Below are positions 3,706 through 52,975 of a stretch of 64,000 bases of DNA, in pieces. The notes under the pieces were generated by a model, which worked only from the letters and a program-made list of their open reading frames with translations, did no database searches and was not told the origin of the DNA. The position numbers and the translations under genes are program-made. The stretch is from an uncultured Clostridia bacterium (GTDB lineage Bacteria > Bacillota > Clostridia > Oscillospirales > Acutalibacteraceae): positions 1,786 to 65,785 of the forward strand of contig CALWUY010000041.1 of NCBI GenBank assembly GCA_944384855.1, read 5' to 3'. Position 1 is the first letter of the stretch. Every line of letters begins with the position of its first letter.

Positions 3706-4395
3706 ATGTCTTCTTTAGAGAAAAACACAGTTCCTTCTTACAACCAGCTGAAAGACGCGCCGTCTTGCTATACATTAAATCCGGACGGTAAAGGTATACG
3801 GGTATTATTTGTCGGAAATTCAATAACACTGCACGGCATAGCCGAAGAAATCGGCTGGAACCATTTCTGCGGTATGGCGGCATCGGCGCCGGAAAAAGAT
3901 TATGTGCATTTATGTATGAATGCCTTTTTAAATTATGACAGCGAAGCTACCTTTGCTATAGCTCAGATTGCAGACTGGGAACGCGAGTTTAAAAACGGAA
4001 GCGAACTGCTTAACAACTATAAGGTGTGCAGAGACTTCAATGCCGACGTTATAATATGCCGAATCATAGAGAACTGCCCCGGCAAAGACTTTGACTGCCA
4101 GGTATTTAAACGGGAATATAAAGCTATGCTTGACTTTTTCAATAAAAGCGGTAAAGCGCATATAATTCTTACAACAGGATTTTGGCGCCATCCGGGAGAC
4201 TGCGCAATTAAAGAAACTTCGGAGGACTTAAAACTAACCCTTGTAGATTTAGGCGATCTCGGAGAAGATGACAGCATGAAAGCCGTAGGCGAATATGAAC
4301 ACGGCGGCGTAGCCCAGCACCCTAATGACAACGGCATGGCGCATATTGCCCAAAGAATAATCGACGCGCTTAAAAGTGACGGTATTTTAAAATAG
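3706..4395 (+). CDS. SGNH/GDSL-type hydrolase (esterase)
   Basis: Block I-like VLFVGNSITLHG and C-terminal HPNDNGMAHIA (D-x-x-H type). GGAGG lies 8 nt upstream of the ATG at 3706. The track starts at TTG 3688. Confidence 0.65.
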   Translation: MSSLEKNTVPSYNQLKDAPSCYTLNPDGKGIRVLFVGNSITLHGIAEEIGWNHFCGMAASAPEKDYVHLCMNAFLNYDSEATFAIAQIADWEREFKNGSELLNNYKVCRDFNADVIICRIIENCPGKDFDCQVFKREYKAMLDFFNKSGKAHIILTTGFWRHPGDCAIKETSEDLKLTLVDLGDLGEDDSMKAVGEYEHGGVAQHPNDNGMAHIAQRIIDALKSDGILK

Positions 4396-8400: not shown

Positions 8401-10206
8401 CTATTCGTCAAGTTTCAATACTGCCATAAACGCTTCCTGAGGTACTTCTACCGTTCCGAGTTTCCTCATGCGCTTTTTGCCTTCCTTCTGTTTTTCAAGA
8501 AGCTTTTTCTTACGTGTAATATCTCCGCCGTAACACTTCGCGAGCACGTCTTTACGCAGTGCCTTAACCGTTTCCCTGGCGATTATTTTACCGGAAACCG
8601 CAACCTGAACAGGCACTTCAAACAACTGTCTCGGAATATATTCCTTTAGCTTTTCGGCAATTTTACGCGCCCGGTTATACGCGTTATCCGAATAAACTAT
8701 AAATGAAAGCGCGTCTACAATATCTCCCGCCAGCATTACGTCAAGTTTTACAAGCTTTGATTTTTCATAGCCTTTCATTTCATAGTCATAGCTTGCGTAA
8801 CCTTTTGTCCTGGATTTAAGCGCGTCAAAAAAGTCATACACTATCTCTCCCATAGGCATTATATAGTGTATATCAACACGGTCTCCCATATACTTCATAT
8901 CGGTATAGATCCCGCGTCTTTCTTCGCAAAGCTGCATAATGGTGCCTACGTAATCGCTCGGACTGTAAATATGCACGTCCGCCACAGGCTCGAGCGCTTC
9001 GGCTATAACGGCAGGATCGGGATAATTTGTAGGATTGTCCACCGTTACGGTTTCTCCTGTCGTCAAAACAAATTTATATTCCACACTCGGAGCAGTTGTT
9101 ACAAGATCAAGATTGTATTCCCTTTCAAGCCTTTCCTGTATTATCTCCATGTGTAAAAGGCCCAAAAATCCGCACCGAAAGCCGAATCCCAGCGCATTTG
9201 AGCTTTCCGGCTCAAAAAGCAGTGAAGCATCATTGAGCTGAAGCTTGTCCAATGCCTCGCGCAAATCAGGATATTTGGCGCCGTCAGCCGGATAAATTCC
9301 GCAGAATACCACCGGATTTACCTTTCTGTAACCGTCAAGCGCCTTTTCCGCCGGACATTCGGCCAACGTGACAGTATCTCCTACCCGTGCTTCGCTCACT
9401 GTCTTTATCGACGCCGAAAGATATCCTACCTCTCCCGCTTCCAGAACATCACACTGTTCTAAGCTCGTAGCCCTTTTTCTGCCGATTTCCACAATGTCAA
9501 ATTCCGCTCCGGTCGCCATCATTCTGATACGGTCACCGGTTTTTATTTTTCCGCTTACTACTCTGAAATAAACCACAACGCCTTTATACGGATCGTAATA
9601 CGAATCGAATATCAGCGCAGTAAGCGGAGCGTTTCTGTCTCCCTTGGGAGCCGGAAACTCCGTTACTATCTTTTCTAAGACTTCTTCTATATTGATTCCC
9701 GTCTTTGCAGATATCATCGGAGCGTTATCTGCAGGAATGCCGATTATATCCTCTATTTCGGCTTTTACCCTCTCAGGTTCAGCCGACGGAAGATCTATCT
9801 TATTTATCACCGGCAGAATTTCAAGTCCGTGATCAACCGCAAGATATGTGTTTGCCAGCGTCTGAGCCTCGATTCCCTGTGAGGCATCAACTATCAGCAC
9901 TGCTCCCTCACAGGCCGCAAGCGCCCTTGAGACTTCATAGTTAAAATCGACATGTCCCGGAGTATCTATCAGATTAAGTTCATATTCAAGTCCGTCAGCC
10001 GCGGTATAATAAAGCGTTACCGCATGAGCCTTAATTGTAATGCCGCGCTCTCTCTCAAGATCCATACTGTCAAGTATCTGATCCTCCATATCGCGCTCCG
10101 ACACGGATTTGGTAAGTTCCAGCAGTCTGTCTGCGAGAGTGGATTTGCCATGGTCAATATGTGCTACAATACAAAAATTTCTTATCCTGTCAAGCGGAAA
10201 CGACAT
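8401..10206 (-). CDS. lepA: translation elongation factor 4 (LepA)
   Basis: [23 protein letters not shown]1 motif, [13 protein letters not shown] and the characteristic LepA C-terminal domain. 601 aa. Confidence 0.97.
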
Positions 10207-42632: not shown

Positions 42633-42843
42633 GTCTATCCGGTTGAATGCTCTGCCAAAAATGCAACAATTTTTTTGCACTGACAGAACAATTTACCGTA
42701 CAGTTATATTGTTTTAGAATAATATCTGCAAGTTTTAAAACAAGTCTTTTAAGCGACAACCGTTAGTTTTAACATTATGTCGCGGCACAGATGTATTTTT
42801 CCCATTTACCTGCGAACAATAAACAGCGGCAGGTGTTTTAAAA

Positions 42844-42960
42844 ATGGAAATAATAAAGGTTTTTCTTACGGCGCTGCTATCGGTAGCATCATTATTTATC
42901 ATCACGAAGCTGATGGGACACAAGCAGGTAGCTCAACTTGATTTCTTTGACAATGAGTAA
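42844..42960 (+). pseudogene. 38-codon N-terminal remnant of a DUF421 (YetF-like) membrane protein gene
   Basis: MEIIKVFLTALLSVASLFIITKLMGHKQVAQLDFFDNE* matches the conserved N-terminus (..KLxGK+QxxQLxxFD..) of proteins that are about 200 aa long. It stops right after that motif. Confidence 0.55.
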
Positions 42961-43006
42961 TAAATGCATATACTGATACAGAAACCACAGCAGGAGGTAT
43001 CAGTAT

Positions 43007-43396
43007 ATGAGAAATTGCCATCGGGGCAATCACCCTGAAATCCGCGATTACGGTTCTGGACCGTTTGTCTTTAATATCAATCATGCGGCAAATATGAATC
43101 AGAACTTCCGGACAACTCTTTGGACAGGACGGGATATGCAGCTGACATTAATGAACATTCCGGTAAAAAGTGACATAGGTACCGAAATGCACGCCAATGT
43201 TGATCAGTTTATCCGTATCGAAAACGGACGCGCGAAGGTATATATGGGAAACTGTGAAAATACTTTGCGAGAAGTACAAACTGTCAACGGAAACTACGCT
43301 GTCATCGTTCCCATTACGCAGAAACGGCGGCATCATGAACCGGATCATCGCAAAAACAACATTGAAATTTCACATTTACTTTTTTCCGGAAATTAG
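43007..43396 (+). CDS. cupin domain protein, with a probably frameshifted or decayed C-terminus
   Basis: PFVFNINHAANMNQNFRTTLWTGRDMQLTLMNIP...HANVDQFIRIENGRAKV is a typical small cupin. After ...YAVIVP the frame gives basic junk, while a neighbouring frame gives ..GIMNRIIAKTTLKFHIYFFPE, which resembles the expected G.WHN..N.G...LKLYSIYAPPEH. Confidence 0.6.
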   Translation: MRNCHRGNHPEIRDYGSGPFVFNINHAANMNQNFRTTLWTGRDMQLTLMNIPVKSDIGTEMHANVDQFIRIENGRAKVYMGNCENTLREVQTVNGNYAVIVPITQKRRHHEPDHRKNNIEISHLLFSGN

Positions 43397-43441
43397 AGGA
43401 TTACGGTAAATATTTACCTTTATACTGTCGCTCTAATATAA

Positions 43442-43477
43442 AAAGGACAGTATAGTTTTTATGCCATACTGTCCTTT
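43442..43477 (-). terminator. intrinsic terminator after the dockerin protein gene
   Basis: aaaggacagtat-(12-nt loop)-atactgtccttt, followed on the minus strand by ttttatatt. Confidence 0.75.
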
Positions 43478-43592: not shown

Positions 43593-46190
43593 TCAGAATG
43601 ATTCGAAGAGCAGTTTTCTAAGTGCTGTGAAGTCAAGTGCATTAAGCACGCCGTCAACCGCTTCGCCGGCCTCAGCAGCGTTTGCAAACCACTTGCCTTC
43701 GTTTCCTGCAAGAAGCTCTTTCTTTACATGGATAAGGTCAAGAATATTAACCGCATTATCTACATTGTAGTCGCCTGCTACGATATCGAAAGCCTGTGAT
43801 ACAGATGTTGCCGCGAGACTCTCAACACCGAATGTAACATCATAGGTGGTAGCCGGAACACCGCTGAAGAATATGTAGTAAACAGCTGCAGGATCGAACC
43901 ACTCGTTAGCAGTAAGTTCAGCCACTGGGATCTTAACCTGATTCCAGCCGAAGCTCAGATTTTCTAATGTATAGTAAGCGCTTGCTTGATCAAAAATATC
44001 GGGCATTTCAACGGGAGTTGCATTAAGATAGAATGTAAGGCTGCACTTAGCGGTTACATAGAGGTTCATTTCAATATAATCTATATCGGTCAAATCCATA
44101 GGTGTGGGAAGAAGTATCGGCTCAGTCGCATTCTGAACGTTGCCGGCAGCAGGTATCTTAACATTTTCATAACCGTTGAATCTGCTGATTACCTTTCCGG
44201 TATAAACCATATCGGCTTTTTCGGATTCCTGTACGGTAAGAGCAAAGTTGGTGAACGCAAACCGAATTTCAGCCGCGGTATCATTAAGAAGTGTACCGTC
44301 GAAGAAGAATCCTTTGATAGCCGAAACGTCAACGCCTTCCGCCAATTCCAGTTCACTGATCGGAAGCACTACATGATTCCAGCCGATTTCCATTTTAGAT
44401 GTATTTATCAATGCCGATGCCCTGTCGGTTGAAGTCCATGCAATAGCATCATTACCGAATCTGATAGCAATATCATTATCAGCCTTTGCACCGAGATATA
44501 CATCAAATTCTATAAAGTCACCTTTGTTAAAATCTATTGTCTTTGTGAAGTTGGTTTTATCAATATACCATGCGTAGTTTCCTACATAACCGTCGGCATC
44601 CCAGCGCATTTTTCCGCCTTCTACAAATGTTCCGTCGCCGCTGATTTCCGGATGAGTTGTAGCTTCAAAATACTCGCTGCGCGGATAAGGCGAGAATTTG
44701 GTGCAGGCAACATTAGCAACCTTAAAGGTAATTGCGTCACTCGAACTCGGTGTGCCTTCAAAGAAGTAGCCGCTCCATGAAGTGAGATCGGCAATCTTGA
44801 AGCCGCTTCCGGAACCCGCGTAATCATTTATTACATCGATTACAACATGATGCCAGCCCGCAGTTTCAAGCTTCGGGAAGGTCCAGAATCCGCGTACCGC
44901 AGCTTTGTCTGTATGTGTATGGAACAGTATGCTGCTTTCCATAGGAGCAGAAACATAAACATCCATCTCAATATAATCAACATCGGTCATGTCAACAGGG
45001 TCAAACTGATTCCATAACTGATATTTATCATACATATTTGAACCTGCAGGAACAGTATTACCGCCAACTGAATTAACAGGTGCTATACCGTCAACAGCCA
45101 TATCAACTAAGAAGTGTTCATTGTTCATATCCGGATAACTCTTTGTAACGCCGAAGTTTGCTATTCCCACAGTAAGCTCAACGCCGGGGGCGTTAGGATC
45201 GCCTTCAAGGAAGAGTGAAGTGAGATTTTCCTTACGGAATGTACCTTCAGTGATTGCAACCTTTGTTAAATCAACAACCACGTGATTCCACTGTCCCGGA
45301 GTGAGTGTGCTAAGAGTAACATTGTATCTCGCACGACCGGTTTCTTCAGTTGCATAATCGAAATCATTACACAGCCAGATTCCCATATCCTGCATCTCTG
45401 CGGAAATCCAGATATCAAACTCAAGGAATTCGGCAGATGTAGTATCCATTGCGTCCGCCAGACCCATGAACAGGCGCGCGTCTGCTCCGTAAATCGGATC
45501 TACATATATATTTGTTACGTCACCTTGCCAATATTTTTCAAATACTGAGTTATCATAATCTATAGCAATATTTTCATAGGTTTCGCCGGCTACAGGAGCT
45601 TCAGGAACCTCAGCAGGTCCTACAGGTTCCGGATCAGGACCAGGATCAGGTTCACCAGCGGACTCATCATTCGTGAAAGCAAGGTTTGCCATAGCGAATT
45701 CTACAGAATTTACATCAGAATCAACAGGCTGCACATTGGTGTTGTACACATAGAACGCGTTAAGCGCAGAAGTATCGTATGGGGCTTCCGGAGTTTCCAA
45801 ATTGCCTTGGTCATTTCCTATAACTGACATAGGAATACAAATGTGATTCCAGCCTGCATTCAAGGCGGGAAGTTTTGTACCTTTGCGTCCGGGACCATCG
45901 CCGCTGCCGCTGGTAACAATAAGCGTAGTTTCCGGCATCGCCGTGCTTGCATACATATCAAATTCAAGATATTCCGCCTCAGATACATCGATAGTACCGG
46001 ATTCGTTATCTGTCGGGAATTCATAATAGAATACACCGCCCCAGCTCATGCTCCAATCCATGGTACTCTGACCTTTTGTATATGTGCGGCTGATAAATTT
46101 ACCATTTTGCTCATATACGGTATTGGTATGGGTATTATCCATCAGCGGAGTTTCTCTTGTGAAGGCAAGATTTGCCATCTTCAGATTCAC
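43593..46190 (-). CDS. C-terminal 865-codon part of a repeat-module protein ending in a dockerin. It has no signal peptide of its own and continues ORF 46218..47195 in frame.
   Basis: Five to six modules of about 145 aa carry the recurring motifs YLEFD.Y.S and GWNHV. A Pro-rich linker is present. The C-terminal dockerin-like duplicated segment is GDYNVDNAVNILDLIHVKKELL / DGVLNALDFTALRKLLF. Confidence 0.75.
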   Translation of the reverse strand: MNLKMANLAFTRETPLMDNTHTNTVYEQNGKFISRTYTKGQSTMDWSMSWGGVFYYEFPTDNESGTIDVSEAEYLEFDMYASTAMPETTLIVTSGSGDGPGRKGTKLPALNAGWNHICIPMSVIGNDQGNLETPEAPYDTSALNAFYVYNTNVQPVDSDVNSVEFAMANLAFTNDESAGEPDPGPDPEPVGPAEVPEAPVAGETYENIAIDYDNSVFEKYWQGDVTNIYVDPIYGADARLFMGLADAMDTTSAEFLEFDIWISAEMQDMGIWLCNDFDYATEETGRARYNVTLSTLTPGQWNHVVVDLTKVAITEGTFRKENLTSLFLEGDPNAPGVELTVGIANFGVTKSYPDMNNEHFLVDMAVDGIAPVNSVGGNTVPAGSNMYDKYQLWNQFDPVDMTDVDYIEMDVYVSAPMESSILFHTHTDKAAVRGFWTFPKLETAGWHHVVIDVINDYAGSGSGFKIADLTSWSGYFFEGTPSSSDAITFKVANVACTKFSPYPRSEYFEATTHPEISGDGTFVEGGKMRWDADGYVGNYAWYIDKTNFTKTIDFNKGDFIEFDVYLGAKADNDIAIRFGNDAIAWTSTDRASALINTSKMEIGWNHVVLPISELELAEGVDVSAIKGFFFDGTLLNDTAAEIRFAFTNFALTVQESEKADMVYTGKVISRFNGYENVKIPAAGNVQNATEPILLPTPMDLTDIDYIEMNLYVTAKCSLTFYLNATPVEMPDIFDQASAYYTLENLSFGWNQVKIPVAELTANEWFDPAAVYYIFFSGVPATTYDVTFGVESLAATSVSQAFDIVAGDYNVDNAVNILDLIHVKKELLAGNEGKWFANAAEAGEAVDGVLNALDFTALRKLLFESF

Positions 46191-46217
46191 GGTTTCCGCA
46201 GTATCAGGTGTCGTAAG

Positions 46218-47195
46218 CTATAAGAATATATTCTTTACCGCCGCTCTGTTAAAATCGGCGTTAGGAGCAGTAGAAATAACACTCAGTTTGCTCATATCCA
46301 CAATAATATGAGTCCAGCCGGCATTTAATTTGAAGCCGGTCTCCATACGCGCTCTGCCCGCGTCTGCCCAAGCAGCGGAAGAAACCCATACCTTAATGTC
46401 TGGAACTGCAACATTTGAATAAATATCCATCTCAAGATATTCGGCATTGGTAGTATTGTAAGACTGGTTTAAATGTCCATACCAGGAAGGGTTATTGTCA
46501 GGTCCGAAAGGAGGCATTGTATAATTTGCGGCAATACCATCTTTAGCCCAGAAAACACCCTCTTTGGTTTCCAGAGCCACACCGTTTACAACAGTGAGTT
46601 TCGGAACAACGATATCGGCAGTAAAGGCAAGGTTTGCCATGATGAAATCCACCGATTCAACCTCAGGATCAACAGGCTGAACATCGGTATTGAAAACATA
46701 GAAAGCGTTAAGTGATGCTGTATCGTAAACAATATCTCTGTCGTAATTGCCTTCGGCATTACCTATGTCCGTCATAGGAATGCAGATGTGGTTCCAGCCT
46801 TCATTCAAAGCAGGGAATTTAACACCCCTGCGTCCGGGGCCGTCGCCGCTGCCGCTTGTGACTATAAGTATAGTGTCCGGCATCGCGGCGCTTGCATACA
46901 TATCAAACTCCAAAGCCTCCGCGTCCGAAACATTTATGGTTCCGGAAGCGTTTTCAGTAGGGAATTCATAGTAAAATACACCGTCCCAGCCGCCAATACC
47001 AAAGTCATACGTACTTTGACCCCTTGTATATGTACGGGAAATAAATTGACCTTCCTGCGAATACAAAGCATATTGTTTCTCATTATTCATAGCAGGAACG
47101 GAAACAGCGCTTGCAATCATAGGTACCGAACACAAAAGCAATGCAACAGCAATAACTATTGCAAGCAGCTTTTTGAGATTTTTCACATAAAACAC
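46218..47195 (-). CDS. N-terminal 325-codon part of the same repeat-module protein, with a signal peptide. It ends at the in-frame TAG at 46218-46220.
   Basis: Signal peptide MFYVKNLKKLLAIVIAVALLLCSVPMIASA. Module 1 is about 70 percent identical to the first module of 43593..46190. The stop falls inside module 2. Confidence 0.75.
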   Translation of the reverse strand: MFYVKNLKKLLAIVIAVALLLCSVPMIASAVSVPAMNNEKQYALYSQEGQFISRTYTRGQSTYDFGIGGWDGVFYYEFPTENASGTINVSDAEALEFDMYASAAMPDTILIVTSGSGDGPGRRGVKFPALNEGWNHICIPMTDIGNAEGNYDRDIVYDTASLNAFYVFNTDVQPVDPEVESVDFIMANLAFTADIVVPKLTVVNGVALETKEGVFWAKDGIAANYTMPPFGPDNNPSWYGHLNQSYNTTNAEYLEMDIYSNVAVPDIKVWVSSAAWADAGRARMETGFKLNAGWTHIIVDMSKLSVISTAPNADFNRAAVKNIFL

Positions 47196-47707
47196 TCCTT
47201 AATAAAATTTTTTGACCTCTTTCAGAAAAACCCGTTCAGAATATTCTGACATGGATATGCTGAAAAAAGCCGAATCTGAAGCAACAAAAGTCTTTCCCAC
47301 TCTCAACAGTATAGTCTTTTGTCAACTTCAAATTTATATGCACGGCGGATCGCCCCGCCTTGCACAGCCTTAACAAAACCGCGTTCTGTTAAGCCTCTGA
47401 TTTCTTGAATTTCCCACAAATCAACAATCAGAGAATAAACCCTAAAACCGCAAAAATAAATATAAAAGTTTGCGCAAAACCAACAAATTCCGGCATAAAT
47501 TTATAAATCATTTGTGCATTTTAGGTGTTTACTTTTGTGTTTTATCACCAAAAAGTTACCTTGTCAAGTAAAAGATTGTGCATTTTGTATTATTGTTTTC
47601 TCAAATGCGTAAAAACAACTATTGAATTAACACACATTATATGTTAAAATTACCAATACAACAGCAAATTACCCATATAATTATAAATCATTTTTTGGAG
47701 GACGCAT

Positions 47708-52444: not shown

Positions 52445-52975
52445 CTATAAATAAATTTCTATCTTTCTGTGGCTTTTGCGGTCAAGGGATGAAATGCTTT
52501 CTATTACGAATCTGTTGCCGTCAACATCCAGCAGGACAGCCTTGTCCTCTCCTATCCTGATAATATTGCGGAAGGTATCCTGCATTGTGAAATTGACCCG
52601 TCTTCCGTCCTGTGTTTCTACATTCCAATATGAAAAACCGTAGCGTTCTTTAAGGGATAAAACCTGTTTAATCTGAGGCTCGTAGTATTTGCGCTCCAGC
52701 TCGGTCACAAGCAGTTTCCGCGCTTCTTCTCCGAAATCTTCTATATTCAGGATTATTCCGATTTCATTGGATTGATCGTCAAGCACGGAAACGTACTCCC
52801 ATTTAAGCTGAAACGGAAACGCTCTGTGCAGAAACACCCGCCCGTATTCACGGGTTCCCCCATCAAGCGTTACCTTTGCCGAAAGAAAGCCGTTATTAGA
52901 TTCAAAAAACGTGTTACTGCCGTCAAGCCTGACTATCGCGGCAGCAGAATCCTTAAGTATGTTATCGTTTTTCAC
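52445..52975 (-). CDS. DUF1854 domain protein
   Basis: 176 aa. ...HRAFPF...EIGIILNIEDF...ELERKYYEPQIKQV...YWNVETQDGRRVNF...DVDGNRFVIESISSLDRKSHRKIEIYL matches my recollection of the DUF1854 pattern. It sits between two ABC genes. Confidence 0.7.
   Translation of the reverse strand: MKNDNILKDSAAAIVRLDGSNTFFESNNGFLSAKVTLDGGTREYGRVFLHRAFPFQLKWEYVSVLDDQSNEIGIILNIEDFGEEARKLLVTELERKYYEPQIKQVLSLKERYGFSYWNVETQDGRRVNFTMQDTFRNIIRIGEDKAVLLDVDGNRFVIESISSLDRKSHRKIEIYL

Follow-up and report, generated by a model that had tools for sequence, protein, structure and literature searches.

Premature stops in surface-anchored proteins are best known from Listeria monocytogenes, whose inlA PMSC alleles provide the closest parallel to the locus described here. 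An in-frame UAG may also be read as a sense codon. In pyrrolysine decoding this is accomplished by the pylTSBCD system, which is found in methanogens and in some Firmicutes and Deltaproteobacteria, and in amber suppression it is accomplished by tRNA(CUA), as in laboratory supE/supF strains and in gut phages of code 15, which are TAG-recoded and carry suppressor tRNAs. A search of the literature on dockerin genes that have become premature-stop pseudogenes found nothing. In this study, we analyzed a 64,000-nucleotide stretch of the genome of an uncultured Clostridia bacterium (the window), in which the frame of a secreted dockerin protein is interrupted by a TAG. Like pyrrolysine genes, the locus has an ORF that is intact but for an in-frame UAG, and, as in amber-suppression systems, a suppressor would render its in-frame TAG readable. 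Our analyses suggested that it is very likely an ordinary pseudogene, in which a young, clone-wide GAG-to-TAG nonsense mutation broke one gene for a secreted dockerin protein of ∼1197 aa with seven CBM-like modules.

The TAG lies at 46220..46218 on the minus strand and interrupts one frame of 1197 codons. Single-frame translation of 47300..43593 showed one internal stop, which falls between ...AAVKNIFL and LTTPDTAETVNLKMANLAFT...; the minus-strand context is ...GCG GTA AAG AAT ATA TTC TTA TAG CTT ACG ACA CCT GAT..., and the base following the stop is C (UAG-C). The ORF listing gives two ORFs at this locus, 46218..47195 (325 aa) and 43593..46190 (865 aa, start GTG 46190), both in one frame and separated by the TAG and nine sense codons (LTTPDTAET) ahead of GTG 46190. 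The first-pass annotation of this DNA had held that a single TAG splits a secreted dockerin protein of ∼1200 aa into an upstream ORF with a signal peptide and no dockerin and a downstream ORF with a dockerin and no signal peptide. The sequence and the one-frame translation agree with this description in everything except the start of the upstream ORF. GTG 47195 sits within the Shine-Dalgarno sequence, and the true start is GTG 47186, 8 nt after AAGGAG, so that the product beginning MKNLKK... has 322 aa and not 325. This start is in agreement with public gene calls (P0010) and with the N-terminus of the homologs, the ortholog included, and the truncated 322-aa product P0010 is recorded in NCBI, ENA and Logan. 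The signal peptide (MKNLKKLLAIVIAVALLLCSVPMIASA) was assigned by eye and is common to the homologs. Downstream of the TAG, public gene calls give products of 849 and 861 aa from internal ATGs. Inspection of the sequence ahead of the downstream candidate starts revealed no convincing Shine-Dalgarno sequence, as had been remarked of the downstream ORF before, and no terminator-like site was found near the TAG. An internal promoter or re-initiation was rejected as a candidate, because promoter-like matches around the TAG were at chance level (12 found against 11.4 expected), the downstream starts lack a Shine-Dalgarno sequence and the product would be without a signal peptide. The coordinates of all features are collected in Table 1.

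Table 1. Features of the interrupted dockerin gene, in window coordinates, and other genes of the same genome with an in-frame stop, in genome contig coordinates.
Feature	Coordinates	Strand	Remarks
Shine-Dalgarno AAGGAG	47195..47200	minus	Sequence 47240..47170; 8 nt upstream of GTG 47186
5' gene part, 322 codons from GTG 47186 (= P0010)	46221..47186	minus	Signal peptide, whole module 1, module 2 to penultimate strand
Signal peptide	47186..47106	minus	In 5' gene part
In-frame TAG, formerly GAG (Glu)	46218..46220	minus	G-to-T at 46220 on coding strand, C-to-A on plus strand
Module 2, 154 aa, CBM-like beta-sandwich	46158..46619	minus	Alignment and structure model
3' gene part, 874 open codons and TGA	43593..46217	minus	Five further CBM-like modules, Pro-rich linker; no signal peptide, no convincing RBS
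C-terminal type I dockerin	43608..43778	minus	Pfam, 26.4 bits, above cut-off
Terminator-like hairpin 3' of gene	43442..43477	minus	14-pair stem followed by T run
GNAT acetyltransferase	G000:C4:197-724	minus	TAG
Group II intron reverse transcriptase	G000:C56:78753-79409		TGA
YhcG/DUF1016 nuclease	G000:C74:4839-5876		TGA
GH127 fragment	G000:C31:509-904		TAA
WYL regulator	G000:C50:177862-178866		TAA

A relative of the interrupted gene, P0002, was found as one intact 1636-aa gene on Logan contig L001. Its neighbors are the same as in the window, namely two ABC half-transporters with DUF1854, a DAG-kinase-like gene and an FGGY kinase, with a PALP enzyme on the other side. The flanks of the window and of L001 were 90-91% identical, and the gene itself was 85% identical from module 2 onwards; judged from these neighbors and from the identity of flanks and gene, P0002 is taken to be the orthologous gene of either a sister species or a distant strain. 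Two independently translated genes in related strains had been named as a finding that would overturn the earlier reading; the relative examined here carries one intact gene. At the codon of the stop, the ortholog reads TTA GAG in both of its module-2 copies vs. TTA TAG in the window. In an eight-module alignment, the stop column of the seven homologous modules contained E, E, E, E, N, G, and E, that is, Glu in five of the seven. Both observations accord with the earlier proposal of a single GAG-to-TAG substitution at a Glu/Asp position, and the comparison indicates that a single intact gene with GAG preceded the present state, the codon having been changed by one G-to-T transversion on the coding strand. 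The locus thus shows three of the features by which a premature-stop pseudogene is recognized: the loss of a sense codon through a single substitution, an orthologous locus that is one continuous gene, and a TAG that is real in the DNA.

The exact 41-nt context bearing the TAG was detected in five contigs of other assemblies (ENA ERZ24773478, ERZ24773473, ERZ28614933, and ERZ28614790; Logan ERR4096543), representing no fewer than four samples and three assembly pipelines (SPAdes-style NODE contigs, scaffolds of another pipeline, and Logan). Four of them were 100% identical to the window over 6.3-6.7 kb, and the fifth (L011) showed 1 mismatch in 4731 nt (99.98%), at window 43182, outside the gene. 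The context of the TAG (TTCTTATAGCTT) is not a homopolymer. The first-pass annotation had named an assembly error as one finding that would overturn its reading; because all five other assemblies carry the same TAG, and none of them a sense codon, such an error is effectively excluded, although the base may still be polymorphic (G/T) within samples. The TAG is common to every copy of the clone seen so far and is not private to one assembly. Because the window and the five contigs are near-identical, the six sequences are best regarded as one clone, and, with some of the samples probably coming from the same studies, these six copies demonstrate reproducibility and not long persistence.

We also searched for an intact allele. 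A query of residues 190-520, which spans the stop, found no intact allele above 71% identity in 5.8 billion protein clusters; only seven proteins were returned, with P0002 the best at 71%, plus the window's own 849-aa downstream call. For intact or partial ORFs (165-525 aa detectable), a 300-aa query centered on the stop found only the truncated P0010. At the DNA level, JGI metagenome contigs contained no match to a 29-nt pattern in which the mutated base was replaced by N, and neither did the GTDB species genomes, a set from which the window's own genome may have been left out. In a set of 40 related genomes, of which 24 belong to the same genus, only the window's own genome contained the gene, with one TAG inside, and the same search also gave a 32%-identical paralogous piece on contig C12. 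A search for related loci in genome contigs found no relative.

The metagenome contigs showed some further features around the 3' end of the gene. Four of the five end inside its 3' part, at window 43617 (L007 and L009), 43826 (L008), and 44037 (L010), and the two that end at exactly the same base do so in the dockerin. These ends are probably assembly breaks at repeated dockerin or module sequence. The sole difference between the window and L011, a G to T at 43182, lies in the interval between the dockerin gene and the PALP gene. This interval (window 42640-43420) contains short remnants, namely a 38-aa DUF421-like stub and a 129-aa cupin-like ORF, and ∼470 nt of it (43299..42828) have no alignment to the relative.

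The protein that would result from reading through the TAG comprises, in order, the signal peptide, three modules, a Pro-rich linker, four modules and the dockerin. The dockerin is confined to the downstream part, in which one Pfam search detected PF00404 at 22.7 bits; in the genome search, where the cut-off was 22.9, the domain at G000:C41:45393-45563 reached 26.4 bits, which classifies it as a type I dockerin. The whole genome contains ∼21 dockerin ORFs and three cohesin matches above the cut-off, which means that partners for the lost dockerin existed. Modeling of module 2 with AlphaFold2, based on an eight-sequence alignment, gave an all-beta sandwich with high confidence (pLDDT 90.8, pTM 0.86). 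In this model, the stop corresponds to residue 134, inside the penultimate strand (128-136), and it removes the final 11-residue strand (143-153). The module alignment and the model therefore both place the stop in the middle of a module and not between modules, as had been claimed from the sequence. The nearest solved folds found by Foldseek were carbohydrate-binding jelly rolls (mannanase CBM 1wky, CBM30, CBM29, and CBM11), and these matches were weak (TM 0.4-0.5). For CBM30 (PF21582), the whole protein scored 29.1 against a cut-off of 27, a marginal match in which no single stretch passes and only one module matches, over profile positions 77-152. In its N-terminal architecture (window 46621-47102 vs. 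L001:6085-7995), the window's gene is unlike the ortholog. In the L001 gene, the same signal peptide is followed by a GH53-type catalytic domain, one additional module and two copies of module 2; the window's gene instead has one module, which shows 74.7% DNA identity to its own module 3 (46103..45673), and it lacks a catalytic domain.

On this architecture, translation would start at GTG 47186 and be halted at the TAG by RF1. The expected product is a secreted 322-aa fragment consisting of the signal peptide, one intact module, and a crippled module 2 that would lack part of the penultimate strand and the whole last strand. Devoid of a dockerin, this fragment could not dock onto the cohesins of the cell. 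The 874 downstream codons would no longer be usefully expressed, and any product of internal re-initiation would be cytoplasmic, as it would have no signal peptide. The protein is thus predicted to be truncated and unanchored, probably with module 2 misfolded, and the small cohesin-dockerin system of the clone has probably been deprived of one non-catalytic, multi-CBM component.

The decoding of TAG in this genome was analyzed as well. A search for amber-suppressor tRNAs, which had been proposed as a check, was run with ARAGORN, and none of the 43 tRNAs detected in the 96 contigs had the anticodon CUA; the draft is 97% complete and some tRNA genes are missing from it, so a suppressor tRNA could still lie on the missing sequence. 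None of the 43 tRNAs is for Cys or Ile and tRNA-Ser(CGA) occurs twice, and the draft genome is probably without some tRNA and rRNA clusters. PylS is absent (best TIGR02367 match 27.8 bits vs. a cut-off of 178), and prfA, which encodes RF1, is intact (541 bits). Of the 1889 open frames with 200 or more codons, 216 (11%) end in TAG, and the three positions in the window at which it had been described as an ordinary stop (4393-4395, 8401-8403, and 52445-52447) all read TAG. No stimulatory RNA structure was found 3' of the stop (z = -1.42). Pyrrolysine decoding was rejected on the absence of PylS and of tRNA(CUA). Amber suppression or reassignment of TAG was rejected likewise, given that there is no tRNA(CUA), RF1 is intact, TAG is used as a terminator, and interrupted genes are not biased toward TAG; a readthrough-stimulating RNA structure was rejected on its z-score. 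Unlike pyrrolysine genes, moreover, the homologs of this gene carry Glu at the site and the protein is not a methylamine methyltransferase. Unlike amber-suppression systems, the locus has no suppressor tRNA in the 96 contigs, it is chromosomal and syntenic with its relative and not phage-borne, and the interrupting stops show no preference for TAG.

Other genes of the genome were screened for stops flanked on both sides by coding potential, judged by codon usage in the best of six frames, and the candidates were then tested with Pfam; this screen superseded earlier ones by ORF length and Shine-Dalgarno motif, which had mixed in adjacent same-frame genes and antisense frames. Five other genes with Pfam domains across an in-frame stop were identified (one TAG, two TGA, and two TAA; Table 1), so that with the dockerin gene included the tally is TAG 2, TGA 2, and TAA 2. 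Such an even tally points to general nonsense decay and not to an amber-specific mechanism, and on this count the load of nonsense pseudogenes in the genome is modest. At each of the 11 remaining long same-frame TAG junctions that lack a Shine-Dalgarno sequence, a gene ends in the ordinary way and another one follows. Apart from the dockerin gene, a mid-gene TAG was found solely in the GNAT gene, on a 4.6-kb contig, which reads ...GYATEIA*GMINYARNQG... and has Acetyltransf_3 across the stop (86.6 bits).

Comparison with the ortholog also gave information on the age of the mutation. Downstream of the TAG, dN/dS was 0.18 with a dS of 0.51 (863 aligned codons), compared with a dN/dS of 0.22 for the upstream module and 0.02-0.10 for neighboring housekeeping genes; the downstream value indicates purifying selection. 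The downstream alignment contained in-frame gaps only and no frameshift, and no second stop was found in the 874 downstream codons. Approximately 3-3.5% of random substitutions in this sequence would make a stop, and the absence of a second one limits neutral drift since the mutation to less than about 3-4% divergence at 95%. Because there is neither a second stop nor a frameshift and dN/dS is 0.18, the mutation is young relative to the split from the L001 lineage, and the near-identity of the six copies agrees with this. The preserved downstream frame alone cannot separate a young pseudogene from a gene that is still translated. Values of dS against the ortholog were uneven over window 43596-46217 (0.58, 1.62, 0.36, and 0.15 in successive quarters; 0.37-0.50 in neighboring genes), and this unevenness suggests that recombination or gene conversion has acted, whether among modules or between lineages.

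The first-pass annotation had left a choice between a recent nonsense mutation and expression of the dockerin-bearing form by amber readthrough or suppression. The GAG of the ortholog and the undamaged downstream frame support the former; for the latter, neither a decoding machinery nor an RNA structure was found. Readthrough in its functional form, leaky or programmed, would mean that the cell makes mostly the free 322-aa fragment and some full-length, dockerin-anchored protein, with the TAG setting the ratio and a near-cognate tRNA (e.g., Gln, Tyr, or Lys) as the decoder. A fully open downstream frame with a dN/dS of 0.18 would also be expected if low-level readthrough were still useful, the TAG is present in all six copies while the collections searched yielded no intact allele, and the +4 base is C. 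UAG-C is a comparatively weak termination context in E. coli, and some basal leak is likely. The low dN/dS, however, mirrors the long history shared before the mutation and is silent on selection afterwards, and outside this one clone the TAG is not conserved, since a plain Glu codon occupies the site in the ortholog and the homologs. In addition, the stop falls inside a beta-strand and not at a domain boundary that would fit a two-isoform design, TGA- and TAA-broken genes are equally many in the genome, which points to plain decay, and the lack of tRNA(CUA), of a Pyl system, and of an RNA structure 3' of the stop, together with an intact RF1, argues against it as well. We therefore consider functional readthrough very improbable. 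The more specific proposal that the TAG has been kept because leaky near-cognate reading of UAG-C yields much of the free fragment and little of the full-length, dockerin-anchored protein is, in our estimate, highly unlikely; if it were true, the locus would be an example, on a bacterial chromosome, of functional stop-codon readthrough in a gene for a glycan-binding protein of the cell surface.

Two other explanations were considered. According to one, the T is a sequencing or assembly artefact or a minority variant, and the majority base gives GAG and an intact gene. Two of the supporting contigs have a coverage of only ∼3-4x, judged from contig names, but all five further assemblies, from at least four samples and three pipelines, have T at the same base, the context is not homopolymeric, and the sense version occurs in no assembly searched, which makes this explanation extremely improbable. 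According to the other, the truncation is adaptive: either a free CBM fragment or the shut-off of a costly 130-kDa surface protein would benefit the clone, and the 322-aa product would be functional. Consistent with this, every copy of the clone recovered, from several samples, carries the allele, and module 1 is whole behind an intact signal peptide and a good Shine-Dalgarno sequence. The cut inside module 2, however, should leave a misfolded stub, unlike what would be expected of a selected release variant; with a single clone that shows no diversity, hitch-hiking or drift would explain the fixation equally, and other, unrelated genes are broken too. An adaptive role of the truncation is thus very unlikely.

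With the young nonsense pseudogene as the preferred reading, the two ORFs should be recorded as a single gene that a premature stop has disrupted, and not as two proteins; the "protein" of 849 or 861 aa that public collections list is an artefact of gene callers and has no signal peptide. Beyond annotation, the significance of the locus is small. It may serve as a useful negative control for amber-recoding scans in gut Clostridia, since it combines a preserved downstream frame with the marks of plain recent decay.

Compared with known systems, the unbroken gene resembles those for the multi-CBM dockerin proteins of cellulosome- or amylosome-type systems in Ruminococcus-like Clostridia, in which a signal peptide is followed by CBM-like beta-jelly-roll modules in an array and a type I dockerin forms the C-terminus. 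It differs from the known multi-CBM dockerin proteins in that its modules match no curated CBM family well, and from its own ortholog, which has a GH53-type catalytic domain, in being without a catalytic domain. With respect to inlA, the anchor there is an LPXTG motif, whereas here it is a dockerin, which binds cohesins non-covalently; in addition, the stop here cuts a fold unit, and a single clone with a single allele is known. In the remaining respects the locus is like the inlA PMSC alleles: one nonsense substitution in a secreted multi-repeat surface protein has removed the C-terminal anchor and left the N-terminal part unanchored, in an allele that is clonal.
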